This document shows positions 3,380 to 59,051 of a stretch of DNA of 64,000 bases, in pieces. The DNA is from Desulfurellaceae bacterium (GTDB lineage Bacteria; Desulfobacterota; Binatia; Bin18), in contig JAGWBB010000002.1 of the NCBI GenBank assembly GCA_021296095.1, forward strand, positions 21,463 to 85,462, in the 5' to 3' direction. Position numbers and translations under genes: made by a program. The stretch's first letter is position 1, and the number at the start of each line of letters is the position of its first letter. The notes under the pieces are model-generated. The model saw only the letters and a list, made by a program, of their open reading frames with translations, did not search any database and was not told the DNA's origin.

Positions 3380-4636
3380 ATGGCCGTCGCAGCACCGCCT
3401 TCAGCTCCGCGTCTCGCCTACACCGGCGAGAAGGGCAACATCTTCATTGCTACCCCTCAGTCGGGCCAGCCACAGCAGCTGACCTGGAGTTGGGACGAGC
3501 CGGCCTCGGACAAGGACGGCGCCCAACTGAGCCATGTGTGGCCCAGCTGGGCGCCGGACGGCAGCCGGCTGGCCTGCTTTGGTCTGCGGGGGACGGGCGG
3601 TCCGGAGGTACGCACCAGTCTGTACGCGCTTGCGACCGACGGTGTTGAATCCTGGGAGCTGGCCAGTATCAGCGGCGGCATGCCGATCTACGGCAACTGG
3701 TCGCCCCGCGCCGATGCGTTCGCCGCCCTCATTCAGCGGGAGAAATCCGCGCTGTCGCTGGAAGTCGCCGTCCTGGGCCAGCCGGGTGACATGACGGCCG
3801 TGCTGCACGGCGCGCCGCTGTTCTGGTCCTGGTCGCCGAGCGGGAAGCGGCTGGCCGCCCATGTGGGCCGCCGCACCGGCTCTGACCAGGCGGCTCGAGT
3901 GGTCTTGCTGGACGTCGCCTCGCGACAGGTTATCCGTGAGATCTCAGACCGACCGGGCGATTTTCGCGTGCCGGCCTGGTCGCCGACCGAAGAGCTGCTG
4001 GTGTATGTCGAGCGGCAAGACAACGGCGACAATATGCTCCGTCTGTTCGACGTACCGAGCGGCCAGACGGCGCCGGTTGCCGTGCTGCCCGGCTCGGTCG
4101 CCGCGGTATGGTCGGCCGACGGACAAGCCCTGGCCTTTGGCAGCACCGCCAGACCGGGCTCGCTGCTGTTTTCCGGGCTGCGGATTCTCGATCTGGGCAG
4201 CGGCCGGATTACGTCGCTGCTGGACGAGACGGAGCGCGCGATTACGGGGTTCTTCTGGTCGCCGCGCGGCGACGCCCTGCTGTATCTGAGCGTTGACGTC
4301 CGCCACAGCCATATGCGCTGGCACCGGTTGTCGCGTGCCAACGACACCAGCCGTGAACTGGTCCGCTTTCTGCCCAGCCGCGAGCAGACCTTTATCTTTT
4401 CGTTTTTTGACCAGTACGCCGGCTCACATCCACCCGTCGCTCCAGACGGCAGCGCACTGGCCTTTGCCGGGCATCGCATCGGGCCGGTCGCGCTCGACAC
4501 CGGCTCCCCGGCCCGGGTGTACAGCGTGTCCCTGGACGAAATGGACGCTCCGCCCGCCATCCAAGCCGTCGGCACCGGCAATTTTGTGTGCTGGGAGCCA
4601 CCCTACCCCACCCTTTCGGCCCGCGGCAAAAAGTGA
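3380..4636 (+). CDS. TolB-like beta-propeller protein with PD40/WD40-like repeats
   Basis: Repeated WSPDG / WSPRGD / SWSPSGKRLA motifs typical of PD40 propeller blades. Confidence 0.6.
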   Translation: MAVAAPPSAPRLAYTGEKGNIFIATPQSGQPQQLTWSWDEPASDKDGAQLSHVWPSWAPDGSRLACFGLRGTGGPEVRTSLYALATDGVESWELASISGGMPIYGNWSPRADAFAALIQREKSALSLEVAVLGQPGDMTAVLHGAPLFWSWSPSGKRLAAHVGRRTGSDQAARVVLLDVASRQVIREISDRPGDFRVPAWSPTEELLVYVERQDNGDNMLRLFDVPSGQTAPVAVLPGSVAAVWSADGQALAFGSTARPGSLLFSGLRILDLGSGRITSLLDETERAITGFFWSPRGDALLYLSVDVRHSHMRWHRLSRANDTSRELVRFLPSREQTFIFSFFDQYAGSHPPVAPDGSALAFAGHRIGPVALDTGSPARVYSVSLDEMDAPPAIQAVGTGNFVCWEPPYPTLSARGKK

Positions 4637-4656
4637 GACCGCAGGGCTCGGCCGGA

Positions 4657-4872
4657 TCAGAGGTCGTCCGGTTTGAGGCCAGTCCGTTTAGCAATACGAG
4701 CCAGCATCCGCGGACCGATCTCTTCTCTATCATGAAAGGCAAAGACAAAATCCGGCCAGCCGGGACGTGTGAGAACTCGGTGTGAGCCACGAATGCGACG
4801 CTTTATGGTCCAGCCCAGCCTTTGCAACGCGACCAACACTTGCCGCGCTTTAGTGGCTGGCCACCGGCTCAT
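4657..4872 (-). CDS. hicA: HicA mRNA-interferase toxin
   Basis: 71-aa ORF with HicA/YcfA-like motifs (LGW...GSHRVL...P). 4-nt overlap with the upstream hicB. Confidence 0.75.
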   Translation of the reverse strand: MSRWPATKARQVLVALQRLGWTIKRRIRGSHRVLTRPGWPDFVFAFHDREEIGPRMLARIAKRTGLKPDDL

Positions 4873-5075
4873 GTGATGACCGAGAAGACGGCGGCCATCT
4901 GCGGCACTGACTCACCGTGCTCCAGCCGGTCAGCGACGACTCGGAGCGCTAAGGCTTGGACACGCGCTATGGCCTCTTCACGGGTCTGGCCGTAGGCGAG
5001 AGCCCCAGGGAGTTCTGCTACCTCGCCAAGCCAGCGTCCATCCTCTTCTTGCTCAACTTCGACCGTGAAGTTCAT
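4869..5075 (-). CDS. hicB: HicB antitoxin (UPF0150 family)
   Basis: 68-aa acidic ORF directly upstream of hicA and translationally coupled to it. Confidence 0.65.
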   Translation of the reverse strand: MNFTVEVEQEEDGRWLGEVAELPGALAYGQTREEAIARVQALALRVVADRLEHGESVPQMAAVFSVIT

Positions 5076-5361
5076 GGTCGTATCTTCCTTCTTTCAGTCA
5101 GACCGCTGTCGCCGTGGAGCATAGCGCACCACTGAGCAACTGCAACCAGCAGCGCTGCCGCCTTTGAGAAAAGAGCGAGTGAAGGGGATCTGCCAGGCGT
5201 GAGTCCCGGGTACTGTCCTAATTTGAGGTTTTTCCCTCAACAGCAACAGTGGCTTACAGTTCAAAATAGGACAGCACCGAGTCCCGGGCCTTCCCTTGCC
5301 CGTCCCGGCCAAGCGCGCTAGGCTGTCCGACACACCAGACCGAAGCCTAAAGGAGGGGACT

Positions 5362-6471
5362 GCCATGGCAGCACATCGGATTATTTCTGCGGATTCGCAT
5401 TTTGTCGAACCACCGACAATGTGGGCCGAACGGATTGACGCCAAGTTTCGTGACCGGGCACCACACACCCAGCAGGGGTATAAGGGCAGACCCGGCGAGT
5501 GGTTCAGGTGCGAAAATATCCAGCCGGTTCAGGTCGGCGGCTTTTTCGGTTCGGGCAAAAGCTCCGAGGAGCTGCCCGAACACCTCAAGAAAGGCTTTGA
5601 GGTCGCCCCCAAGAGCGTCTGGGACCCGGCCGAACGCCTCAAGGAACAGGACCGCGACGGCGTCAGCGCCGAGGGGCTGTACACCTCGATGGGCATGCTG
5701 CTGTTCGGCCTCGACGATGCCGAGCTGCGCGCCGCCAGTTTCACCGCCTTCAACGACTGGGCGGCCGAGTATTGCAGCTATGATTCCAAGCGCCTGATCG
5801 GCCTCGGCGCGATCACCCTGGAAGACATTCCGGCCGGCGTCAAAGAGCTGGAACGGATCGCCAACAAGGGCCTGCGGGGTACGCTGATCTGGGGCTCGCC
5901 GCCCGAAGACGCACCGTATAGCGATCCGGTCTACGATCCGTTCTGGGCCGCCGCCCAAGACCTGAACATGCCGCTGTCGCTGCATATCCTGACCGGCCGG
6001 GGCGGTAACCGGTTCAGCCGCCGCCGGGTCTTGTACGGCTATATGCGCCTGCCCCAGGAAATCCAGCTGACCCTGGCCGATATGGTCACCGGCGGGGTGT
6101 TTGAGCGCTTCCCCAAGCTGAGAATCGTGTCGGCCGAAAACGACGTGTCGTGGCTGCCCCACTTCATGTATCGGCTCGACCACGCCTATGATCGGCTGCG
6201 CCATATCGAGGGCCTGACCCTGTCGATGCTGCCCAGCGAGTACATCAAGCGCAACATCTGGGCGACCTTCCAGTTTGAGACCAGCAATGTCGAGTTCACC
6301 CGCCAGGCGGTCGGCACCGAACAGATCATGTGGTCCTCAGACTACCCCCATACCGACTCGCCGTGGCCGCGCTCGCGCGAGTTTATCGCCGGGGCGTTCG
6401 AGGACATGCGCGAAGACGACATAGCCAAGATCGTCGGCGGCAACGCCGCCGAGCTGTACGGGATCGAGTAG
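5362..6471 (+). CDS. Amidohydrolase family 2 (ACMSD-like metal-dependent hydrolase)
   Basis: Motifs ISADSHFVEP ... HI ... SSDYPH. AGGAGG ribosome-binding site 8 nt upstream of the ATG at 5362. Confidence 0.75.
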   Translation, partial: AMAAHRIISADSHFVEPPTMWAERIDAKFRDRAPHTQQGYKGRPGEWFRCENIQPVQVGGFFGSGKSSEELPEHLKKGFEVAPKSVWDPAERLKEQDRDGVSAEGLYTSMGMLLFGLDDAELRAASFTAFNDWAAEYCSYDSKRLIGLGAITLEDIPAGVKELERIANKGLRGTLIWGSPPEDAPYSDPVYDPFWAAAQDLNMPLSLHILTGRGGNRFSRRRVLYGYMRLPQEIQLTLADMVTGGVFERFPKLRIVSAENDVSWLPHFMYRLDHAYDRLRHIEGLTLSMLPSEYIKRNIWATFQFETSNVEFTRQAVGTEQIMWSSDYPHTDSPWPRSREFIAGAFEDMREDDIAKIVGGNAAELYGIE

Positions 6472-6530
6472 GACGCGTTTCGTCCTTCAGGAGGAGAGCC
6501 CGGGACGGCCCTCCTCCTGAAAGGGGCGGT

Positions 6531-7193
6531 ATGAGTACGATCAAAATCCTGCCGTCTATCCTGGCTGCGGATTTTCGCTGCCTGGGCCAGCAGATCGCCG
6601 AGGTGGAGCGGGCCGGAGCGGACGGAATTCATATTGATGTGATGGACGGCCGCTTCGTGCCCAATATCAGCCTCGGTCCGTTCATCGTCGAGGCGGTTCG
6701 GCACACCACCAGCCTCACCCTCGACGTGCATCTGATGATCGTCGAGCCCGAGCGCTATGTGGACGACTTCGCCCGCGCCGGGGCCGACATCATCTCGGTC
6801 CACCAGGAAGCCTGTCTCCATGTGCACCGCACCGTCCAACACATCAAGCAGCTGGGCAAGCAGGCCGGGGTGGTGCTGAACCCCGGCACGCCGCTGTCGA
6901 GCCTGGAAGACCTGCTGGATGAGGTCGATCTGATTCTGCTGATGAGCGTCAATCCCGGCTTTGGCGGCCAGCGTTTTATCGCCGCCAGCACCGATAAGGT
7001 CCGCCGGCTACGCGAGCTACTCGACACCCGGGACTCGACCGTCCTGCTGGAGATTGACGGCGGGATTGATCCCCGCACCGCGCCTCAGGCGGTCGCCGCC
7101 GGAGCCCGAATGCTGGTCGCCGGCTCAGCCGTGTTTGGCGCCCCCGGTGGCCCGGCTCAGGGCGTGAAGCGCCTGCGGGACAGCCTCGCCTAG
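6531..7193 (+). CDS. rpe: Ribulose-phosphate 3-epimerase
   Basis: Signature MSTIKILPSILAADF...HIDVMDGRFVPN...GGI. Confidence 0.85.
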   Translation: MSTIKILPSILAADFRCLGQQIAEVERAGADGIHIDVMDGRFVPNISLGPFIVEAVRHTTSLTLDVHLMIVEPERYVDDFARAGADIISVHQEACLHVHRTVQHIKQLGKQAGVVLNPGTPLSSLEDLLDEVDLILLMSVNPGFGGQRFIAASTDKVRRLRELLDTRDSTVLLEIDGGIDPRTAPQAVAAGARMLVAGSAVFGAPGGPAQGVKRLRDSLA

Positions 7194-7213
7194 GGGCGAC
7201 GCGGGCGGTCTGC

Positions 7214-8656
7214 CTACTTCTTCATTTTCTGCTGCAGCAGATCTCCCAGCGTGGTGCCAAAACCACGGCTGGCCTGTCCGGAATCGCTCATATACGCCTG
7301 GGCCTCGAGTCGTTCCTCCTGGGCTTGGGCTTTGGAACGCGACAGCCTGATCCGTCGGCCCTTGTCCTCAACCGCCAAGACCAGGACTTTCACCTCGGTG
7401 TCCGGCCCAAAGTCCTTGGTGTGGTCGGTGCCGCGCGGCGTCCCCATCTCGGCGTTAGGAACCAAGCCGATTTGTCCGGGCCCGAGCCGGACAAACACCC
7501 CGAACGGTTCGACCCGGTCGACCCGGCCGTTCAGCACGCTGCCGACGGTGATGACGGTTTCTTCGATCTGTTGGCCGAGACTCACTCCTTCGGGGGCCAG
7601 GGCCAGGGCAATCCGGCGCTTGTCAGGGTCGATGCTGAGGATCATGACCGTGATCTGGGACTGCTCGGCGGCCGCGTCCTTGAGCGTACCGTGCTGGCTG
7701 CGCGGGATTTCGCTGACGTGCAGGAGGCCGTTGACCCCGGGCAAGACCTCGACAAAGGCGCCAAAATCGGCCATCCGCACGACCTGGCCGGTGACGATCT
7801 GGCGCGCCTTGAGCTGCTCGGCGACCTGTTCCCAGGGGTCGCCCTCAAGCGCCTTCATGCTCAGGGAAATCTTGCCCGTCTGTTCGTTGACCTTGAGGAC
7901 TTTGACGCTCACCGCCTGACCGCCGCTCAGGAATTCGGCCGGCTTGACGGTGCGGGAGTGGGACAGCTCCGAAACGTGGACCAAGCCCTGGACACCGCCG
8001 CCGAGATCGACAAAGGCACCGAAGTCGGTCAGCGAGGTCACCGTGCCCGGCAAGACCGCGTCGGGCACGATTTTTTCCCGGACCGCCTCGGCTTCCTTGG
8101 CCGCCGCCGCTTCGAGCAGGCGCCGCCGTGAGATGACGATATTGCGGCCGTTTTCGGTATAGCGCGTCACCAGGAATTCCAGGGTCTGGTTCAGAAAAAC
8201 GTCTGAGGACTCGACCCGCCGGATATCCATCTGAGAAAACGGGCAGAAGGCCCGCAGCCCGCCGACCATGACCTCATAGCCGCCCTTGATGACCGCGTGG
8301 ACCGTTCCCTCGACCGGCAGCCCGTGCGCAAAGGCCGCCTCCAATTGCTGGCGGGCCTGCATGCCCTTGAGCAGCTTGCGGGACAGACGAATCTCGCCCT
8401 CGGTCGATAACACCGTCGCCTCGATCTCGTCCCCGACCTCGACCTGCAGGCTGCCGTCCTCGTCCTCCAACTCGGCCCGGGCGATGATGCCCTCGCCCTT
8501 ATCGCGGACATCGACGAAGATGCTGTCCTCGCCGATCTGGATCACACTGCCCTTGACGATCTGACCCGTTTGGAGCGTGGGCTGCGTCGCTTCCTGGGCC
8601 AGCAGCGCCGCAAAATCCTCTGCCGTGTCGGTGGTGGGTGTCTGCGCGTCACTCAT
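7214..8656 (-). CDS. rpsA: S1 RNA-binding-domain protein (four S1 repeats; ribosomal protein S1-like)
   Basis: 480-aa acidic protein with repeated S1 motifs (G.V.G.V..IT.FGAFV.L..GV.GL.H.SE). Overlaps the glnE stop by 4 nt. Confidence 0.6.
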   Translation of the reverse strand: MSDAQTPTTDTAEDFAALLAQEATQPTLQTGQIVKGSVIQIGEDSIFVDVRDKGEGIIARAELEDEDGSLQVEVGDEIEATVLSTEGEIRLSRKLLKGMQARQQLEAAFAHGLPVEGTVHAVIKGGYEVMVGGLRAFCPFSQMDIRRVESSDVFLNQTLEFLVTRYTENGRNIVISRRRLLEAAAAKEAEAVREKIVPDAVLPGTVTSLTDFGAFVDLGGGVQGLVHVSELSHSRTVKPAEFLSGGQAVSVKVLKVNEQTGKISLSMKALEGDPWEQVAEQLKARQIVTGQVVRMADFGAFVEVLPGVNGLLHVSEIPRSQHGTLKDAAAEQSQITVMILSIDPDKRRIALALAPEGVSLGQQIEETVITVGSVLNGRVDRVEPFGVFVRLGPGQIGLVPNAEMGTPRGTDHTKDFGPDTEVKVLVLAVEDKGRRIRLSRSKAQAQEERLEAQAYMSDSGQASRGFGTTLGDLLQQKMKK

Positions 8657-49562: not shown

Positions 49563-50777
49563 ATGATCGACTTCAGCCCGCCCGCCCATGTCCAGACCGC
49601 AGTCGGCGATATCAGGCGCTTTATCGCCGACGACATCAGGCCCATGGAGCGCGAGCTGGCCGACTACCTGACCAACGAACACCTGTACCTGCAAGCCGAC
49701 GGCCGTCTCGCCCCGCCGATCCTGGCCGCCCAACGCACCATCCGCAAAATGTCTGCCAAGCGTGGCCTGTACGCCCTGCACATGCCGACCGAGGTCGGCG
49801 GCGGCGGTTTCAGCCTGACCGATATGTTCTTTGTTCACGAGGCCGTCTACCAGCACGGCATTGGGCTCAGCCAGTGGATGCTGTCGTGGACCGAGGGACC
49901 CAACCAGATGCAGATGTGGCTGAGCGAGGAGCAACAACAGCGCTACCTGTTGCCGCTGGTCCGGGGCGAGCAGACCGCCGCCTACGCCATCACCGAGTAT
50001 CGGGGCGGCTCGGACGTACTGGGCATGCAGACCCGGGCCGAGCGGCGCGGCGACGGGTGGAGCATCAATGGCACCAAAGCCTATATCACCAACGCCCAGT
50101 ACGCGGACCAGATCTTTGTCTGCGCGCTCACCGCACCCGACAAGGGTAGTGCGGGCGCGACCGCCTTTATCGTTGAGAACGACGCTCCGGGCCTCGGCAT
50201 CGGTCGCACGTATCGGACGATCATGGACGACGGCATGACCGGCGAGCTGATCTTCGACGACTGCCGGGTGCCGCTGGACAACACCTGGGGACGCGAGGGT
50301 CAGGGCTTCTACCTCAGCATGGGCATGATCAACTGGATTCGCGTCCGCCGGGGCGGCATGTGCAGCGGCCTGGGTCAGTATCTGCTCGACCGCTGCATCG
50401 ACTACACCAAAAACCGCCAGGCGTTTGGCGGCCGGCTGAGCCGTTTCCAGGCCCTGCAGTGGATGATGGTCGATTCCTATCTCGACGTGCAGGCGATGCG
50501 CAGCATGGCCTTGCAGAGCCTGTGGAAGGCCGACCAGGGCGATCTGTGGGCGCTCAAGGTTGACCCACAGCTGATCCAGACCGTGTGTGGCCTGAAAGTC
50601 TTCTGTGACGAGGCTCTGTACCGGGTCGCCGACCGGGCGGTGCAGCTGCACGGCGCCTACGGGCTCAGCAAGGACTCGGGGATTGAAAAAATCTTTCGGA
50701 TTGCCCGCAACCTGCGCATTCCGGGCGGCACGGACGAGATCCAGCGGGTGAATATTGCCAAGGCCCTGGGTCTGTGA
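49563..50777 (+). CDS. Acyl-CoA dehydrogenase family protein
   Basis: ACAD fold motifs. The 3' end (RIARNLRIPGGTDEIQRVNIAKALGL) is duplicated at 56578-56656. Confidence 0.8.
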   Translation: MIDFSPPAHVQTAVGDIRRFIADDIRPMERELADYLTNEHLYLQADGRLAPPILAAQRTIRKMSAKRGLYALHMPTEVGGGGFSLTDMFFVHEAVYQHGIGLSQWMLSWTEGPNQMQMWLSEEQQQRYLLPLVRGEQTAAYAITEYRGGSDVLGMQTRAERRGDGWSINGTKAYITNAQYADQIFVCALTAPDKGSAGATAFIVENDAPGLGIGRTYRTIMDDGMTGELIFDDCRVPLDNTWGREGQGFYLSMGMINWIRVRRGGMCSGLGQYLLDRCIDYTKNRQAFGGRLSRFQALQWMMVDSYLDVQAMRSMALQSLWKADQGDLWALKVDPQLIQTVCGLKVFCDEALYRVADRAVQLHGAYGLSKDSGIEKIFRIARNLRIPGGTDEIQRVNIAKALGL

Positions 50778-50796
50778 GGGCGTGTATTCAAATGGT

Positions 50797-51084
50797 TCAC
50801 GCCGGACGAACCACTTCGAGTTTCAAGCCTGTCGCCCGAACGACCGGAGCCAGGGTTGACCAGCGCGGCTTACCCTTGGCCGACAGCACGCGATACAGAC
50901 TCTCCCGGGGAATCCCCGCCCGTTTGGCGACCGCCGCCATGCCCTGCGCCTCGGCGACTTTCCGCAGCGCTTGCAGGAAGACCGCCGGCTCTTCGTCCTC
51001 TGCCGCTGCCGTCAGATAGTCGGCGCTGAAACCGGGATCTTTGAGCTGTTCACGCAGCCACTCGTTGTGCTTCACCTTTTTCAT
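50797..51084 (-). CDS. higA: Orphan HigA-type addiction-module antidote protein (HTH); near-identical copy of 56676-56963
   Basis: MKKVKHNEWLREQLKDPGFSA... No cognate toxin upstream; the Tn3-like IR-L begins 39 nt from its start. Confidence 0.7.
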   Translation of the reverse strand: MKKVKHNEWLREQLKDPGFSADYLTAAAEDEEPAVFLQALRKVAEAQGMAAVAKRAGIPRESLYRVLSAKGKPRWSTLAPVVRATGLKLEVVRPA

Positions 51085-51530
51085 GATCCTGTCGCTCACA
51101 GCTGCCCAACAATGCGGCAAGGTGGACCAGCGGGGGCATTTGCACAGAAACCTACGGTTTGGCGAATGTTGACCAACAGCATCACAGGATTTTCAGCCAT
51201 TGCCTCGTGCTCTCGATAAGGAATCCGCCCCCATAGGTGAGGGTTGGCCCATGTTTCAGATCGATGCGGCCCACACCGCCGCGAAAGACCGGAGTCCACA
51301 GCGCGAGATTCGTCGTCTCGCCACCGTCGTTCACGGATGGAACAAGGGATTCTGCACCTGGAATCCCTTGAACGAGTGGGCGATGCTCATCGCGCCGAGC
51401 GCAAACACCAGTACGACGGTGACGCTGACGACTCCCACAGACTTCCGTAGTCGGGGGTTTTTGCCCGCCCCCTCGAAAAGGTATAGTAGCGCGCGTCATC
51501 CGGCGAGAATCCGTCGCACGGGGCCATGGG

Positions 51531-52124
51531 CTAAGCACCACGCGTACTCTTTCCTGAGCGAGTCGTCTGATTCGCCACCAGCGTAACCGCCGTTTTTAGA
51601 GACGAGATTAGTCCGTTCAGGTCACGTCGGCTCTTCGCGCTATATTTGAATGCCATAGCTGCTGTCACAAAGAAATGGGCGAATTGGTTGAGACTTTGCC
51701 CTGACGCTTCTATCTGCTTTGTGTACGGCGACAGCAGGCGCGTAATCAGTTTCGTGTGGCGAGCATGGGATTCCGCGAGAGCGTCTCTCCCAGCTTCGTT
51801 GTGCCCGCTGATCAGATCCTCAGCGTCACCTGATGTTTGTAAGAGCTCAAAGGATTTGATGATGGTTTCCGCAAAATAGACGTCGAGTTGCGCCTCCAGG
51901 GATTCGCACGCGCCAAGGCGTGCTTCGACCTGAGACAGGTTGTGATCGGTGATGTGACGTACCGACGCAACGATCAACTGATCCTTGCTTCCAAAGACAT
52001 CGTACAGCGTCTGCCGTGAGACTTTGGCTTCTTGAGCGATGTCAGCCATCGCCGTTTTTCGGGCTCCGTATCTCACGAAGGTGCGGATGGCGGCTTCAAC
52101 AATCTTTGTTTCTATGTCAGACAT
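51531..52124 (-). CDS. TetR-family transcriptional regulator (transposon cargo)
   Basis: N-terminal HTH (AAIRTFVRYGARKTAMADIAQEAKVSRQTLYDVFGSKD). Confidence 0.85.
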   Translation of the reverse strand: MSDIETKIVEAAIRTFVRYGARKTAMADIAQEAKVSRQTLYDVFGSKDQLIVASVRHITDHNLSQVEARLGACESLEAQLDVYFAETIIKSFELLQTSGDAEDLISGHNEAGRDALAESHARHTKLITRLLSPYTKQIEASGQSLNQFAHFFVTAAMAFKYSAKSRRDLNGLISSLKTAVTLVANQTTRSGKSTRGA

Positions 52125-52390
52125 ATGCGCCCTGTACGTGGCTCCTCGTGTTTTAGGGAGCTAATTGTAGCAAAAATGGACTACTTGACAATACTCATAT
52201 TTATGTAAAACTACAACTTTACAGATGTCGTTAGTTTGTACACCCAGAACGCATTGGAGGATGGTGAGCGAGCCCAGATTCTAAGCCTGAATGCAGCTCA
52301 TGTTTTTAAGTTTGCAATTCCTGCGCGCTGTCTGAAGCACGCAGGTGCAGCAGCCGTTGCCTCGGCAGTGGCGTATCGAGAGGAGAGCAC

Positions 52391-53209
52391 ATGGAGAACA
52401 ACAGGAGTCAGAAGGTCATTTTGATTACGGGCGCCTCTTCCGGCATCGGTAAGGAGTCAGCCAAACAGCTCGTCTCAAAAGGGTATCGCGTATACGCGGC
52501 AGCCCGGCGACTTGAGCAGATGCAAGATCTTGAAGCACTCGGATGCGCGACGATCAGGATGGACATCTCGAAAGAAGAAGAGGTGGAAGAAGTCGTCGGC
52601 AACATCTTGGACGAAGCAGGGACAGTTGATGTGCTCGTCAATAACGCAGGGTATGCAACCCAAGGGCCAGTCGAAGAAATGCCTTTGGAGGATGCCCGGG
52701 CAATCTTCGATGTCAACCTGTTCGGACTTGGGTACCTCACGAAGCTGGTCCTACCCGGCATGCGGGAACAGGGCGCAGGGAGGATCGTTAATATTGGCTC
52801 TGCAGGCGGGAAGGTCTATCTGCCTTTGAGTGCCTGGTATATCGCGTCCAAGCATGCATTGGAAGGCTGGAACGATTGCTTGCGCACGGAGTTAAAGCAA
52901 TTTGGGATTGACGTCGTGTTGATTGAACCCGGCGCCATTGCTACGGAGTTCAACGGTGTGGCCATGAGCTCCATATTAGAAAGATCGGGCGATGGCCCGT
53001 ACGGCAAGTTGGCCCATGCGTATGTCAATCTGGACGTACCAGAATCACATCCGTCCGTCATCGCGGATGTGATTGTGAAGGCGGTTGAGACAAAAAAGAC
53101 GAAATACCGCTACGTCGCTGGAAAGATGGCTAGGACAACGATCGGAATGCGGAAGTGGTTGGGGGACAAAGCGTACGACCGGCTTCTCGACACCATTTAC
53201 AAAGTGTAG
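52391..53209 (+). CDS. SDR-family short-chain oxidoreductase (transposon cargo)
   Basis: TGASSGIG cofactor motif, NNAG, and the Y-x3-K catalytic motif (YIASK). Confidence 0.85.
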   Translation: MENNRSQKVILITGASSGIGKESAKQLVSKGYRVYAAARRLEQMQDLEALGCATIRMDISKEEEVEEVVGNILDEAGTVDVLVNNAGYATQGPVEEMPLEDARAIFDVNLFGLGYLTKLVLPGMREQGAGRIVNIGSAGGKVYLPLSAWYIASKHALEGWNDCLRTELKQFGIDVVLIEPGAIATEFNGVAMSSILERSGDGPYGKLAHAYVNLDVPESHPSVIADVIVKAVETKKTKYRYVAGKMARTTIGMRKWLGDKAYDRLLDTIYKV

Positions 53210-53360
53210 ACATCCCTAGCTCTACGCTGAGGTCTCTCAACAAGGAATCAATCAATGAGCAATCGTACCGTTGGTTTCGTTGGTCTCGGCGCGATGGGTG
53301 AACCCATGGTCGCCCGGGAACAACGGTGCTCCTCATGCGCACGATAATCTCTTTTTGTGA

Positions 53361-53861
53361 GTGATGAACATGACACTATTGCATGCAAAATGGTTTCTGT
53401 CGCTATTGCTGCTGACTGTGGGGGGCTGTCATTCTGTGTATACAGAACTGACGATCCCAGCCGGTCCCGAAGAAATTTGGCCCATCTTAACAGATGCCCC
53501 GGGATATCAAGAGTGGAACCCGGTCTTTGTTCACGTCGAAGGTGAATACCGGGAAGGGGGAACGCTCCAATATCAGATGAAATCCCCTGACAGTGAACAA
53601 ATGGCTGTGCAGGCGACCGTGAAAAAATTGGTTCCCAACAAAGAGTTGAACCAATATGGCGGCTTTCCTGGAGTTTTGACCTTTAGCCACACCTATCTTC
53701 TGGAACCTGTCGATGGAGGGACTCGCGTCATTCAAAAGGAGGAATACCGCGGCATATGGGTGCCGTTTTGGGATTCGAGTTGGGTGGAGCCAGCCTATAA
53801 TAAAGTGAATGAAGCCCTCCAGGACAGGGTGGCGCAGTTGAAGGAGAATGGACGACCATAA
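53361..53861 (+). CDS. SRPBCC (Bet v1-like / polyketide-cyclase-like) protein with an N-terminal lipoprotein-type signal (transposon cargo)
   Basis: LLLTVGGC lipobox-like N-terminus and SRPBCC-like length and pattern. Confidence 0.6.
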   Translation: MMNMTLLHAKWFLSLLLLTVGGCHSVYTELTIPAGPEEIWPILTDAPGYQEWNPVFVHVEGEYREGGTLQYQMKSPDSEQMAVQATVKKLVPNKELNQYGGFPGVLTFSHTYLLEPVDGGTRVIQKEEYRGIWVPFWDSSWVEPAYNKVNEALQDRVAQLKENGRP

Positions 53862-53897
53862 CTACCGTGCCTCGGCAATCTGCATCACCTCCATCGT

Positions 53898-54455
53898 CTA
53901 CGGGGAGGCACTCGGTGCGCTGAGATAGCGATAGACACTGGCTTTGGAGAGTTGGTAGTCCGCCATTAAGATTTTAATGAGTGTTCCTTTCTTGCGTCGG
54001 CGTCGCAGTTCCGTGGTCTTTTGGGGAGTCAACTGCTTTTGCCGGCCGAAGTGCACGCCGCGCGCTTTGGCTTGCTGTATCCCATCCATCTGGCGCTCGG
54101 CCCGAATCTCCGTCTCAAACTGCGCAATGGCTCCCAACATATTGAACAGCAAGCGGCCGGTCGCATCACTGGTGTCGATATGCTGATCGAGGACCTGAAG
54201 ATGGACCTGTTTGCGAGCGAGCTCGTCGGCAATCTGACACAGATGCAGGGTCGAGCGCGCCAAGCGGTCTAAGCGCGTGACGACGAGTGTATCGCCTTCT
54301 CTTACGTACTCCAAGCAGGCGTGTAGCCGGGGCCGCTTGTGGGTCGCACCGCTCTTTTTCTCTTGAAAGAGTTTATCGCAGTGTTTGAGCTTCTCACGCT
54401 GAACGGCCAGACTTTGGCCTACTGAACTGACGCGCGCATACCCGACCAAGGCCAT
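53898..54455 (-). CDS. tnpR: Serine recombinase (Tn3-type resolvase TnpR)
   Basis: MALVGYARVSSVGQSLAVQ... catalytic Ser motif and C-terminal HTH. Confidence 0.85.
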   Translation of the reverse strand: MALVGYARVSSVGQSLAVQREKLKHCDKLFQEKKSGATHKRPRLHACLEYVREGDTLVVTRLDRLARSTLHLCQIADELARKQVHLQVLDQHIDTSDATGRLLFNMLGAIAQFETEIRAERQMDGIQQAKARGVHFGRQKQLTPQKTTELRRRRKKGTLIKILMADYQLSKASVYRYLSAPSASP

Positions 54456-54595
54456 CGCTTGACTCCTCGTGTTTCAGTATGTCTCAGGCTATGTGCGAAG
54501 GCCACAATGAGACATGAATTGAGACACGTCAAGAGCAGTGTCTTGGAAGGTCTACCTTTGGAGACGCTGCGCTCCCCTACAGAAAGGTCCTCTCT

Positions 54596-55330
54596 ATGCC
54601 CATGCCCGAACAGTTTTTACCCAACCGCAAGCGCACGCAGCCCATCTCCCTGCCTCACGACTTTTCCGACGAAGAGATGGACCGCGACTGGTTTTTATCC
54701 GCAAAGGATAAAACCGAGATCAACAAGTATTGGCGCAGCTTCCGATTGGGGATCGCCGTCCAGCTCTGCGCGGTCCGCTTATATGGGCGCTTCTTGACCG
54801 GTCTCCAAGACCTTTCGCCACGCATTCTTAACCACCCCGCCAGCCAGCTCGCGCTGCCTCCGACCCTCACGATTGAAGAACCCGAGCGAGAAGCGACGGC
54901 ATTGGAGCAGCGCAAGAATATCCTCCGCTATCTGGGCTTTCAGCGCTTCGATAACACCCGTCAAGCGCAGCTCCAGAGCTGGTTGGAAGAGCAGGCCAAA
55001 CAGTACCGTCATAAGCTGCCCCGCCGGGTGTTCTTTGCCGATCAAGGCGAATTCACCACCGGCGATTATGAGGCGCTCATGAACAAAGCCAGCTGCTTGA
55101 GTCTGGTGTCGAACGCCATCCTGTATTGGAATACGCTCAAGATTACGGACATTGTGGACCAGCTCAGACAGCAGGGGGAAGCAATTGAGGACGAGACCTT
55201 AGCGCATGTCTCGTTGTTGCCATTTAAGCATGTCCTGCCCAATGGCACCTATTTTTTTAACGACGACTATCCGAGGGCATTTGGCCAGAAAGGTACGGTT
55301 CTGACTCCAGGACGCCGCCCGAAACCGTAG
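54596..55330 (+). pseudogene. tnpA: Internally deleted Tn3-family transposase: DUF4158-like N-terminus fused to the extreme C-terminus, 244 aa against a full length of about 1000
   Basis: N-terminal RLGIAVQLCAVRLYGRFL and C-terminal SNAILYWNT ... LLPFKHV..NG.Y.F resemble the Tn3 TnpA termini. The stop lies inside IR-R. Confidence 0.65.
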
Positions 55331-55438
55331 GTTTCTGTTCAAATGCCCCCGCTGGTCCAAGGTCTCAAACAGCATCTTCCCTGCACTTGCACCTAGGTTT
55401 GATATCTTTTGTAAATTTCCTGGTCTGAGAGAGCTGTT

Positions 55439-55699
55439 TCATTGCTCCCAGCTCTCGAACATGTCTTCCAGCGTGTCGAAGGTTTCCACATCCTCCCCCG
55501 TGCGGCTTTTCTCAAGTGTCTGTTTTGTCAAGGCATTCGGAATCAGGATGGGAAACGGCAGGCCCCCATGCAGACAGATCTGGCGGTAAAAGAGCCGAAT
55601 TGCCTCAGTGGGGGTAAGACCGAGTTTTCGGAGTACACTTTCGGCCTGCTTCTTGGTCTGCGGCTCCACACGCGCATGGACGACGGCTGATTTATTCAT
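55439..55699 (-). CDS. RelB/DinJ-family antitoxin (orphan; no toxin gene downstream before the transposon IR-R)
   Basis: MNKSAVVHARVEPQTKKQAESVLRKLGLTPTEAIRLFYRQ. Confidence 0.7.
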   Translation of the reverse strand: MNKSAVVHARVEPQTKKQAESVLRKLGLTPTEAIRLFYRQICLHGGLPFPILIPNALTKQTLEKSRTGEDVETFDTLEDMFESWEQ

Positions 55700-55992
55700 G
55701 CGGTCCAGCGTGTCACACATGCAACACACCATCAAGCTTGTCCCATCGTCATTGACCCACCCCCGCCACCTTGACAATCCCTCTGCTTGCTCCAGGTTGT
55801 TCTGCTATAAGCGTCCAGGTTTCCACAGGATATACTCCTACAGAAAACGGAGATACCGTCGGCATCTCGTGTGTGACCGAGTTATGTCGCTCCAACAGTC
55901 ATCAGCGCGCACAGTACGGATACGAGATAGTGCGTTTAGCATCAATATCGTGACCGTTGTTCAGAGAGTACCATAGTGGTACCATCGGCGGG

Positions 55993-56196
55993 ATGCCGCC
56001 GAAAATTCGAGAGCTGATCAAAGACTTGGAAGCGGCTGGATTCGTCAACAGAGGCGGAAGAGGAAGCCACAGAAATTTCAAGCATCCACAAGGCGTTCGT
56101 ATCACCATCAGCGGCAGACTGGGGAGCGATGCCCAGGCGTACCAAGAGCGCGAGGTGAAGAGAGCCATAGACAGAGTCCGTCATGAAAAAGAGTGA
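55993..56196 (+). CDS. hicA: HicA toxin
   Basis: MPPKIRELIKDLEAAGFVNRGGRGSHRNFKHPQG. Confidence 0.8.
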   Translation: MPPKIRELIKDLEAAGFVNRGGRGSHRNFKHPQGVRITISGRLGSDAQAYQEREVKRAIDRVRHEKE

Positions 56197-56521
56197 TCGC
56201 TACCTGAAAATCGTCGAATGGTCCGACGAGGACCAGTGCTATATCGGAAGAGCCCCCGGCGTCATGCTGGGTGGGGTACACGGCCGGAATGAGGCCGAGG
56301 TGTACGCCGAACTGTGTACGGCCGTAGAAGAGTGGATACACATCCAGGAGACCGATGGCGACCCGCTCCCGCCCGAGACCGCAAACAAGACGTATTCGGG
56401 CAAATTCAACCTGCGGGTAGGCAAAGTCCTGCACCAACGGCTGGCCGTCGCTGCCCGCAAAGCCGACCAGAGCCTGAATGCATTTTGTGTCAAAGCCCTC
56501 GAAAAGGCGCTTGGCGGCTAG
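56183..56521 (+). CDS. hicB: HicB antitoxin
   Basis: HicB N-terminal RNase-H-like fold region (YIGRAPGV...GVHGRNEAEVYAEL) and a C-terminal DNA-binding tail. Confidence 0.75.
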   Translation: MKKSDRYLKIVEWSDEDQCYIGRAPGVMLGGVHGRNEAEVYAELCTAVEEWIHIQETDGDPLPPETANKTYSGKFNLRVGKVLHQRLAVAARKADQSLNAFCVKALEKALGG

Positions 56522-56577
56522 CAGCCTATTGATGAGAGTATACTCTTCAGAAGCTCTTTCTCGTTGCCTTATGGTCA

Positions 56578-56656
56578 GATTGCCCGCAACCTACGCATTC
56601 CGGGCGGCACGGACGAAATCCAGCGGGTGAATATTGCCAAGGCCCTGGGGTTGTGA
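56578..56656 (+). pseudogene. Duplicated 3'-terminal fragment of the acyl-CoA dehydrogenase gene (26 codons plus stop)
   Basis: About 95% identical to 50699-50777. The homology continues through the adjacent higA copy. Confidence 0.7.
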
Positions 56657-56675
56657 GGGCGGTCAGTCAGGTCGC

Positions 56676-56963
56676 TCACGTCACGCGAACCACTTCGATC
56701 TTCAAGCCCGTTGCCCGAACGACCGGAGCCAGGGTTGACCAGCGCGGGTTGCCCTTGGCCGACAGCACGCGATACAGACTTTCCCGGGGAATCCCCGCCC
56801 GTTTGGCAACCGTCGCCATGCCCTGCGCCTCGGCGACTTTTCGCAGCGCTTGCAGGAAGACCGCCGGCTCTTCGTCCTCTGCCGCCGCCGTCAAATACTC
56901 GGCGCTGAAACCGGGATCTTTGAGCTGTTCACGCAGCCACTCGTTGTGCTTCACCTTTTTCAT
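56676..56963 (-). CDS. higA: HigA-type addiction-module antidote protein
   Basis: Paralogue of 50797-51084. Lies downstream of higB. Confidence 0.75.
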   Translation of the reverse strand: MKKVKHNEWLREQLKDPGFSAEYLTAAAEDEEPAVFLQALRKVAEAQGMATVAKRAGIPRESLYRVLSAKGNPRWSTLAPVVRATGLKIEVVRVT

Positions 56964-56995
56964 GATCCCGTCGCTCACTTCCAGCTCACAGTACG

Positions 56996-57316
56996 TCACA
57001 GTCTTGACCGCCAGTCCTTCAATCGCGCCTTCGCCGCTGCAATGTCAGACTGTTGCGTCCCCTTGGTGCCACCACACAGCAGCAAAATGACGTGCTTCTG
57101 GGTCGTGGCAAAGTAGACGCGGTACCCAGGGCCATAATTAATCCGCAGTTCCATGACTCCACCCTTCACTGATCGACAGTCACCCAGCAAACCGAATTCG
57201 AGGCGTTCAACCCGCGCCGCGATCCGCGCTACTGCCCTCTGGTCTCGCAAGCTGCTCAGCCAGGCATCAATCAAATCTCGCCCGTCAGCATCGGTGTAGT
57301 GGAGAACTTCAGCCAT
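56996..57316 (-). CDS. higB: HigB/RelE-type addiction-module killer protein
   Basis: 106-aa RelE-fold protein (MELRINYGPGYRVYF...VILLLCGGTKGTQ). Confidence 0.75.
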   Translation of the reverse strand: MAEVLHYTDADGRDLIDAWLSSLRDQRAVARIAARVERLEFGLLGDCRSVKGGVMELRINYGPGYRVYFATTQKHVILLLCGGTKGTQQSDIAAAKARLKDWRSRL

Positions 57317-57377
57317 AGAAGTCTTGGAAACTGTAACTTATTCGTTACATATGTCAAGGCATTGTTATGGCTAGGTC

Positions 57378-57560
57378 CAGGAAGTCGATGGCGACCCGCT
57401 CCCGCCCGAGACCGTAAACAAGGCGTATTCGGGCAAATTCAACCTGCGGGTAGGCGAAGCCCTGCACCAACGGCTGGCCGTCGCTGCCCGCAAAGCCGAT
57501 CAGAGCCTGAACGCATTTTGTGTCAAAGCCCTCGAAAAGGCGCTTGGCGGCTAGCAGCCT
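57378..57560 (+). pseudogene. Duplicated 3' half of hicB (about 90% identical to 56350-56530)
   Basis: Clear nucleotide homology, including the stop and the trailing CTAGCAGCCT. Confidence 0.65.
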
Positions 57561-58924: not shown

Positions 58925-58972
58925 GCCTTGCGTCGCTCTTGTTGTTTGCCGTCACTCAGGATATGGCACACC

Positions 58973-59038
58973 CCAAGTCCAGGCCAAGTCCAGGCCAAGT
59001 CCAGGCCAAGTCCAGGCCAAGTCCAGGCCAAGTCCAGG
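58973..59038. repeat. Six perfect tandem copies of the 11-mer CCAAGTCCAGG immediately upstream of the ribosome-binding site of the hydrolase gene
   Basis: Read directly in the sequence. The repeat is followed by CG AGGAGG AAGCC ATG. Confidence 0.9.
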
Positions 59039-59051
59039 CGAGGAGGAAGCC

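Follow-up and report, generated by a model that had tools for sequence, protein, structure and literature searches.

The stretch of DNA analyzed here (64 kb, referred to as the window) is part of contig JAGWBB010000002.1, which comes from a metagenome-assembled genome (MAG) with the NCBI name Desulfurellaceae bacterium and a place in the Binatia lineage. Positions 51124 to 55358 of the window hold a 4,235-bp transposon that is foreign in composition, with a G+C content of 54% compared with 63% for the window as a whole. From left to right, this element contains a terminal inverted repeat (IR-L), the remnant of an older cargo gene, a gene for a TetR-type repressor divergent from one for an SDR oxidoreductase, a gene stub, a gene for an SRPBCC protein, a serine resolvase gene (tnpR) divergent from an internally deleted transposase gene (tnpA′), and the opposite terminal inverted repeat (IR-R). 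Within the Tn3 family, it is described here by this layout and by its nearest relatives. Based on the results described below, the element is very probably a Tn3-family transposon that was inserted by transposition, whose transposase has lost its core and whose cargo is partly decayed.

The two terminal repeats, IR-L (51124–51160, plus strand, GGACCAGCGGGGGCATTTGCACAGAAACCTACGGTTT) and IR-R (55322–55358, minus strand), are each 37 nt long and are complementary to each other at 36 of 37 positions. Directly outside the boundary that these ends share with a family of related IRs lies a perfect direct repeat, AAGGT, at positions 51119–51123 on the left and 55359–55363 on the right. The presence of this target-site duplication argues that the element arrived by transposition and was not rearranged afterwards. 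A first-pass annotation of this DNA had reported no visible 5-bp target duplication and had invoked a later rearrangement, a proposal that fails because the duplication exists. The same annotation had paired 51123–51160 with 55322–55359 as 38-bp repeats with one mismatch. This pairing holds, but a base-by-base reading of the junctions shows that the apparent 38th pair is the T...A of the AAGGT duplication, so the true IR is 37 nt long. The 37-nt boundary is also supported by the abrupt stop of conservation outside GGAC in 128 related IRs, and the outer boundary of IR-R is the same in the solo right ends of two other loci (L006 and L046, beside hisH/hisF), where the flanking DNA is unrelated. 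An alternative in which the IR would begin at GGGGG and GGACCAGC would be flanking DNA or a palindromic target was ruled out by the target duplication, the family boundary, and the test of register given below.

The 29-nt IR core occurs only twice in the window, compared with 0 occurrences expected from 100 shuffles. IR-L agrees with the family consensus (GGACYAGCGGGGGCATTTGAACAGAAACYTACGGTTT), and its C at position 20 is common to the Binatia relatives L011, L067, L069, and L072. IR-L and the conserved sub-terminal segment that follows it (51161–51220) are 93–97% identical to the left ends of L011, L067, L069, L072, and L103, which derive from Binatia and Thermodesulfobacteriota MAGs. These left ends, IR-L and ∼100 bp in length, lie in different flanking DNA, indicating that this lineage has been mobile.

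The family to which these ends belong was defined by a scan for the IR core with one genome per species, which returned at least 120 stretches (L009–L128), from which 128 IRs were aligned. The core is found in at least 120 loci of Cyanobacteria, Gammaproteobacteria, Chloroflexota, Binatia, Desulfobacterota, and other groups. The consensus of the 128 IRs shows a sharp drop of conservation outside GGAC, and the terminus is GGACY throughout this subgroup (GGACC in the window element), including elements from many phyla that carry a full-length Tn3-family TnpA. For comparison, we used a reference Tn3 IR that had been verified against more than 5,000 plasmid records. When aligned in register from GGAC, the IR matches that of Tn3 at 18 of 38 positions, a value reached by 368 of 100,000 shuffles; the matches are concentrated at positions 14–35 (15 of 22), with 3 of 13 at positions 1–13. 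When GGGGG is set as position 1, only 13 of 38 positions match. The earlier description of a GGGGG core as in Tn3/Tn21 ends was therefore out of register, as GGGGG is internal (positions 9–13) and the terminus is GGAC. Thus, the inner, transposase-binding half of the IR resembles that of Tn3, with GGAC in place of GGGG at the terminus. As judged from these alignments, the GGAC terminus is a subgroup trait common to elements with full-length TnpA, and it modifies but does not exclude membership in the Tn3 family.

Other family IRs occur as inward-facing pairs. Two such pairs, at L014 (128–1038) and L023 (3514–3859), enclose ∼0.9 and ∼0.35 kb, respectively, and look like miniature derivatives of the subgroup that resemble TIMEs (miniature inverted-repeat elements derived from Tn3). 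No target duplications were visible by eye around the pairs at L014, L023, and L123, so the 5-bp rule is unconfirmed there at the level of the family.

The transposase gene has been gutted. The open reading frame (ORF) of tnpA′ (54596–55330, plus strand) encodes 244 amino acids, which match positions 1–131 of the Pfam profile DUF4158 and positions 307–389 of the 389 in DDE_Tnp_Tn3; against the NCBIfam model transpos_Tn3 the protein scores 145 bits, compared with a cut-off of 500 bits. Residues 1–136 are 60% identical to residues 1–136 of a 977-aa Alteromonas TnpA, and residues 137–224 align to residues 887–974 of the same protein (68% identity over a 116-column high-scoring segment pair, query 109–224). 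The two parts likewise align to residues 36–135 and 884–966 of Tn4430 TnpA. The deletion junction (55003/55004, Q136/Y137) lies precisely between codons, and 750 codons are gone relative to the 977-aa protein. At this point the window protein reads AKQ/YRHKLPR and its relatives NKGE/YRHKLPR, with Q136 placed on Tn4430 E881 in the HMMER alignment. In Tn4430, the catalytic triad is D679/D751/E881, and IR box B is read mainly by an N-terminal DNA-binding domain, DBD1 (PMC9579193). By this alignment, tnpA′ keeps the IR-reading DBD1 (DUF4158) and the last ∼108 residues, with all three DDE residues lost. A complete transposase of the Tn3 family has ∼1000 aa, with DUF4158/DBD1 at the N terminus and a DDE_Tnp_Tn3 catalytic domain; tnpA′ is homologous to these genes but is not a functional member of the family. 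Because the DDE residues are deleted, the element is predicted to be unable to transpose by itself. The alignment of both termini to Tn3-family TnpA and the mapped deletion bear out the first-pass reading of an internally deleted transposase, which retains its DUF4158 N terminus and a C-terminal part and has lost the catalytic core.

The position of the tnpA′ stop codon had been described as lying in IR-R, as in Tn3. It does lie inside IR-R (55328–55330), but this arrangement is not usual in the subgroup, where most tnpA genes end in ...NGTYFIED followed by a stop codon at 80–114 nt from the terminus. The frame is extended to 28–49 nt from the terminus only in the window element, L006, L081, and L016 (less far in the last of these), and the stop codon falls within the IR in the window element, L006, and L081.

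Within the 64-kb window there is no other sequence of a Tn3-type transposase and no second copy of the element. Among 5.8 billion proteins, we found no cognate full-length TnpA and, fragments aside, none that was more than ∼68% identical over either of the two retained parts; a metagenome scan for the full-length parent returned a single N-terminal fragment with 63% identity. The subgroup has its own independent tnpA truncations and internal deletions with different junctions, as in P0002, L067 (7633–7999), and L006 (3839–4495), and this variety of junctions among related genes indicates that gutted transposases recur in the subgroup. A conserved family of short TnpA proteins was considered and rejected, as P0002 (277 aa) has a different deletion junction and P0071 (256 aa) is an unrelated fusion.

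The extended 3′ end of tnpA′ contains an additional feature, a degenerate inverted copy of the IR core (IR′, 55272–55300, plus strand) that lies 20–22 nt inside IR-R. IR′ is 83% complementary to IR-R over 29 nt, and an RNA hairpin formed by the two has a predicted energy of −38.7 kcal/mol (z −2.6). About one-third of subgroup ends, among the matches listed, carry such an inverted copy of the inner half of the IR at a fixed 20-nt offset. These copies match at 19–25 of 29 positions, compared with no more than 17 in an outer-flank control, and they adjoin tnpA, tnpR, or other genes and are mostly non-coding. Some elements have IR′ at both ends, one of these being the Alteromonas element L008 (26–102 and 8938–9014). 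In the subgroup, IR′ may provide TnpA with a second binding site, or it may form a terminator-like hairpin.

The presence of two inverted box-B-like sites at the right end bears on whether the 244-aa fusion of DBD1 to the C-terminal part is itself functional. Such a protein would bind IR box B and IR′ and would either repress transposition, serve as an immunity-like factor, or control read-through at the right end. Consistent with this, the ORF is intact in 6 of 6 copies, the deletion falls precisely on a codon boundary and keeps the frame, and the retained N terminus is the domain by which Tn4430 TnpA reads box B of the IR. However, an in-frame outcome is expected by chance in ∼1 of 3 cases, and the ORF shows no sequence variation with which purifying selection could be tested. 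Furthermore, P0002, the sole other short form with both domains, does not share the junction, which argues against a conserved short-TnpA family, and relatives carry many unrelated truncations. A functional role for the fusion therefore seems very improbable to us. The broader idea that the GGAC subgroup has a distinct end architecture, with the mini-TnpA as an IR/IR′-binding regulator (for instance, one that inhibits transposition or acts as an immunity-like factor) rather than debris, is a long shot as well. If it were true, it would represent a new regulatory variant of Tn3-family ends.

Divergent from tnpA′ is tnpR (53898–54455, minus strand), which encodes a 185-aa serine resolvase with a Pfam Resolvase domain (E = 6.4e-41) and an HTH_7 domain. 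Gin invertase and the γδ and Tn3 resolvases can be aligned with the entire protein, whose YARVS motif retains serine 10. From these alignments TnpR looks intact, and the domain matches uphold the earlier call of a serine resolvase on the strand opposite to tnpA. The 140-bp spacer between tnpR and tnpA′ (54456–54595) occupies the place expected of a res site in a Tn3-type layout, where tnpR and tnpA point away from each other and have res between them (PMC7157771). It contains a cluster of TGTCTCA/TGAGACA motifs: 3 of the 7 exact occurrences in the 64-kb window fall within the 47 bp from 54480 to 54526, and degenerate TGTCTCA half-sites were read by eye at 54470, 54539, and 54565. Its position and motif content suggest that this spacer may function as res.

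The cargo proper begins with tetR (51531–52124, minus strand), which encodes a 197-aa repressor of the TetR/AcrR family (Pfam TetR_N, E = 4.8e-13). Transcribed divergently from it is a gene (52391–53209, plus strand) for a 272-aa classical SDR oxidoreductase (Pfam adh_short, E = 2.3e-51) that scores 353 bits against the NCBIfam model PRK06182 (cut-off, 305). This is followed by a 32-codon pseudogene fragment of an HIBADH-like (NAD_binding_2) dehydrogenase gene (53255–53350, plus strand) and by a gene (53361–53861, plus strand) for an SRPBCC protein of 163–166 aa (Pfam Polyketide_cyc2, E = 3.7e-14). The SRPBCC protein has a signal peptide and a lipobox-like TVGGC, the latter read directly from the sequence. 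All three of the gene calls made previously (TetR, SDR, and SRPBCC) are thus confirmed by domain matches.

These genes had been interpreted as a self-contained three-gene module, but comparison with other loci shows that they derive from a larger one. The conserved module consists of a TetR gene divergent from genes for an SDR, an HIBADH-like dehydrogenase, an SRPBCC protein, and a second SDR (SDR2). The nearest non-identical homologue of the window SDR (65% identity) lies in this module; the window TetR and SRPBCC proteins are 54% and 45% identical, respectively, to their counterparts in the module at L133. The HIBADH stub was recognized by its syntenic position, and its sequence (MSNRTVGFVGLGAMGEPM) matches the N terminus of the L133 HIBADH-like protein at 13 of 18 residues (BLAST). 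The second SDR gene is missing from the window. Therefore, the cargo is a decayed five-gene module in which one gene is a stub and another is missing. The module occurs in four copies (L133–L136, ∼4327–7844 in each) on different large contigs of metagenome ERZ22155170. Each of these copies lies beside different insertion sequence (IS) transposases and a mazEF pair, which suggests that the TetR/SDR/HIBADH/SRPBCC/SDR2 module is itself frequently mobilized.

The spacer between tetR and the SDR gene (52125–52390), previously described as 267 nt and AT-rich, measures 266 nt with 48% G+C. A promoter scan and comparison with L133 identify it as a region with divergent promoters and a putative operator. 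The tetR promoter, TTGTCA-16-TACAAT (52191–52164, minus strand), has a scan score of 10/12 and an extended −10 element. It is overlapped by a conserved block (∼52187–52225) that contains TTGACA and the palindrome TGTAAA-N8-TTTACA. This block (TTGACAAT..ATGTAAAACT..ACAACTTTACA) is kept in the spacer of the 54–65%-identical L133 module, and TGTAAA-N8-TTTACA is likely to be the operator. In one variant of the element, L001, a 142-bp insert (1311–1452) resembling a miniature inverted-repeat transposable element lies in this spacer at window position 52161–52163, flanked by CTA. Its imperfect terminal inverted repeats read GAGCGTTTTACG... and ...CGTAATTTGCTC, and it is placed just downstream of the −10 box of tetR.

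Two further observations bear on the makeup of the cargo. A 518-bp patch that includes the SRPBCC gene (53353–53870) is 96.5% identical to three chromosomal loci, L130 (7984–8501), L131, and L132, which have no TetR, SDR, or transposon genes and whose neighboring genes are unrelated. The sharing of this patch with unrelated chromosomal loci indicates that the cargo is a mosaic. The patch begins on its left where the HIBADH stub ends, and this points to the SRPBCC gene alone having been exchanged recently by recombination. The second observation concerns a 235-bp remnant (51218–51452, minus strand, with ∼61 bp missing) of the 3′ part of a gene for a 411–457-aa protein. Over 296 aligned columns, this remnant is 75–79% identical to the gene adjacent to IR-L in L067, L069, L103, L011, L006, and L046. 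No Pfam domain matched the 411–457-aa protein, and no intact ORF of this family is present at 51218–51452 in the window. In the sister elements, the cargo consists of this gene followed by genes for a TPR protein and an ArsR-rhodanese regulator. The position and identity of the remnant indicate that the TetR block replaced this older cargo.

The element lies in an intergenic spot within a dense cluster of toxin-antitoxin genes (50797–51120, 55439–55777, 55957–56521, and 56676–57316). The cluster consists of an orphan HI1420-type antitoxin gene, an orphan relB, hicAB, and a second copy of the antitoxin gene with that of a Gp49/HigB-type toxin; the first HI1420-type antitoxin copy has lost its toxin partner. 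The host assignment draws on a neighboring acyl-CoA dehydrogenase, which groups with one encoded by a Candidatus Binatia contig of 5.2 Mb. Elsewhere in the window, just downstream of an ORF for an MFS transporter, there are ∼7 tandem copies of an 11-bp unit, CCAAGTCCAGG (58962–59049).

The exact 244-aa protein was found on 5 other metagenome contigs, and the flanking relB on 3 more and on one permuted contig, L138. In all of these 9 other contigs, the insertion site is the same wherever the right junction is covered. No copies at other sites with other target duplications were found by the exact-protein and relB look-ups or in the window. Variation among these contigs includes further decay, with a premature stop codon in tnpR (Q83*, window position 54209) in L003 and the lack of IR-L and the adjacent antitoxin gene in L001. 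In L005, the flanking relB (window 55462–55718) has diverged by ∼7% (20 differences in 294 bp), and the adjoining 970 bp of the element is identical.

The first-pass annotation had held that the element could move only in trans. Taken further, this view would make it an active nonautonomous transposon, similar to TIMEs, that is mobilized by a full-length cognate TnpA from a plasmid or from another part of the genome. Both of its IRs are intact, differ from each other at 1 of 37 positions, and deviate little from the family consensus; the target duplication is present; and the resolvase and the res-like region have been retained. In addition, full-length TnpAs with the same IR type exist (in Alteromonas pMIT1002 and L127), Binatia and Thermodesulfobacteriota MAGs carry the same IR-L lineage at no fewer than four separate sites, and mobilization of Tn3 derivatives in trans has been demonstrated experimentally (PMC4133298). 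On the other hand, an actively moving element is at odds with the single insertion site shared by the other contigs that extend to the right junction (9 of 9). The protein and metagenome searches described above likewise yielded no close TnpA, none is encoded in the window, and the nonsense codon in tnpR (L003) and the loss of IR-L (L001) point to relaxed selection on mobility. We consider current activity in trans unlikely. Restriction to movement in trans is a reasonable conclusion now that self-catalysis has been lost, and such mobilization is possible, but the single insertion site gives no sign of it.

The repeats that surround the element offer another way in which this region could change. 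Direct repeats D1 (50696–51099 and 56575–56978, 91% identical) bound a 5.9-kb unit composed of the transposon, relB, and hicAB, and a second pair of direct repeats, D2, lies at 56343–56527 and 57376–57560. The permuted contig L138 joins the flank of IR-R to that of IR-L through a hybrid D1, the left part of which is like copy 2 and the right part like copy 1. In principle, the D1-bounded segment could be the dynamic unit, with homologous recombination duplicating it in tandem or excising it as a circle. In favor of this, both D1 and D2 are direct repeats, and the hybrid D1 of L138 is the product expected of recombination between the two D1 copies. However, a path switch by a short-read assembler within an identical stretch of D1 would give the same contig, and L138 is the one contig of this type. 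We judge this explanation to be distinctly unlikely; it is also compatible with insertion of a transposon, to which it would merely add a later layer.

Several observations weigh against the interpretation of the element as a decaying Tn3-family transposon that was inserted by transposition. The canonical terminal GGGG of the Tn3 family is absent and GGACC is found instead. Look-ups of the flanking relB gave occupied sites and the one permuted contig, with no empty site, so the case for insertion is carried by the target duplication and the family boundary. The tnpA′ ORF is intact, with zero substitutions in every variant, and in consequence neither neutral decay nor selection can be shown for it. 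The host-genome search for a cognate TnpA covered 64 kb, so one could be encoded elsewhere in this genome. Finally, the sub-sites of the putative res could not be told apart, as the tnpR–tnpA spacer contains no inverted or direct repeat of ≥10 nt and the pairing of its half-sites is ambiguous.

If the element is a Tn3-family transposon that has lost its transposase core, its history can be outlined as follows. It would have inserted into an intergenic spot of a chromosomal region rich in toxin-antitoxin genes, duplicating AAGGT, and a single in-frame deletion would have gutted tnpA either before or after its arrival. A decayed TetR/SDR/HIBADH/SRPBCC/SDR2 module would have taken the place of the older cargo, of which the 235-bp remnant beside IR-L is left. 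The element would now be fixed at one site in the population and slowly decaying, and it is probably immobile at present. Transposition would be possible only if a cognate full-length TnpA acted in trans on both intact IRs, after which the element's own TnpR and res-like region would resolve the cointegrate. As for the cargo, TetR probably acts at the conserved palindrome to keep both divergent promoters repressed until it is released by a ligand, presumably a hydrophobic small molecule, and the SDR might then reduce or oxidize this ligand or a related compound. The cargo had earlier been described as a ligand-inducible small-molecule module; a TetR switch that controls an oxidoreductase is indeed the most likely function, but what is present in the window is incomplete relative to the conserved module.

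On its own, the element is of little weight, as many decayed Tn3-family transposons carry passenger genes and this one probably can no longer move. It does provide a clean example of cargo replacement and stepwise decay within one transposon, and it shows past activity of the GGAC-terminated Tn3 subgroup in the little-known, uncultured Binatia. In addition, a conserved SDR/HIBADH/SRPBCC/SDR module, presumably under the control of TetR, was recognized as a passenger of different mobile elements. The most interesting point, however, is not the window element but the IR′ duplicate of its subgroup. At the site of cleavage, the transposase in the solved Tn4430 complex reads a highly conserved box A, 5′-GGGGT (PMC9579193). 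For this reason, a non-canonical terminus combined with a fixed-offset duplicate of a binding box could be of interest for work on end recognition and cleavage in the Tn3 family.

Among known systems, Tn3 and Tn1000 (γδ) share with the window element terminal IRs of ∼38 bp with a matching inner half (15 of 22 at positions 14–35), a 5-bp target duplication, divergent tnpR and tnpA genes that flank the resolution region (putative in the window element; PMC7157771), and a homologous serine resolvase. The window element differs from them in its terminus (GGAC and not GGGG, with 3 of 13 matches at positions 1–13), in the lack of TnpA residues ∼137–886, which include the DDE triad, in the extra inverted IR-core copy at its right end, and in a cargo that is a putatively TetR-regulated oxidoreductase cluster and not bla.

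The nearest annotated full-length TnpA (WP_049589046.1, 977 aa) is encoded by an 8.99-kb Tn3-family transposon of Alteromonas macleodii pMIT1002 (NZ_OX359242.1, ∼65094–74078). This transposon has IRs of the same type (GGACCAGCGGGGGCATTTGAAC..., 94.6% identity to IR-R) and an IR′ 20 nt inside its terminus. Unlike the window element, it has a tyrosine recombinase and no serine resolvase, a chrBA chromate-resistance cargo, IR′ at both ends, and a tnpA that stops before IR′.

TIMEs and their derivatives (Szuplewska et al. 2014) have no working transposase, depend on TnpA in trans, and generate 5–6-bp duplications (PMC4133298), and one TIME derivative carries a resolvase gene with res (PMC4133298). 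Like them, the window element is bounded on both sides by family IRs and lacks a functional transposase gene. In contrast to TIMEs, which were captured while transposing, it has no known second insertion site, and it arose from an internal tnpA deletion that kept both ends of the gene, so that it is neither a miniature IR pair nor a composite of two TIMEs.

The closest relatives of the element are its sisters L067, L069, L072, L103, and L011 and the solo right ends L006 and L046. In addition to the 93–97% identity of IR-L and the adjoining ∼100 bp, they share a right end and tnpA 3′ part that are 90% identical, including the tail ...YPRAF(G/S)QKGTVL(T/P)PGRRPKP. They too have defective transposition genes, with a different tnpR–tnpA deletion in L067 and only the tnpA 3′ end in L006. 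They differ in carrying the 411–457-aa protein/TPR/ArsR-rhodanese cargo, of which the window element keeps the 235-bp remnant of the first gene. The modules at L133–L136, for their part, have the same gene order and orientation as the window cargo, and the HIBADH start region and the promoter/operator block are conserved. Their tetR–SDR spacer is 101 nt, compared with 266 nt in the window, where HIBADH is a stub and SDR2 is absent, and their neighbors are IS elements and mazEF rather than Tn3 ends.

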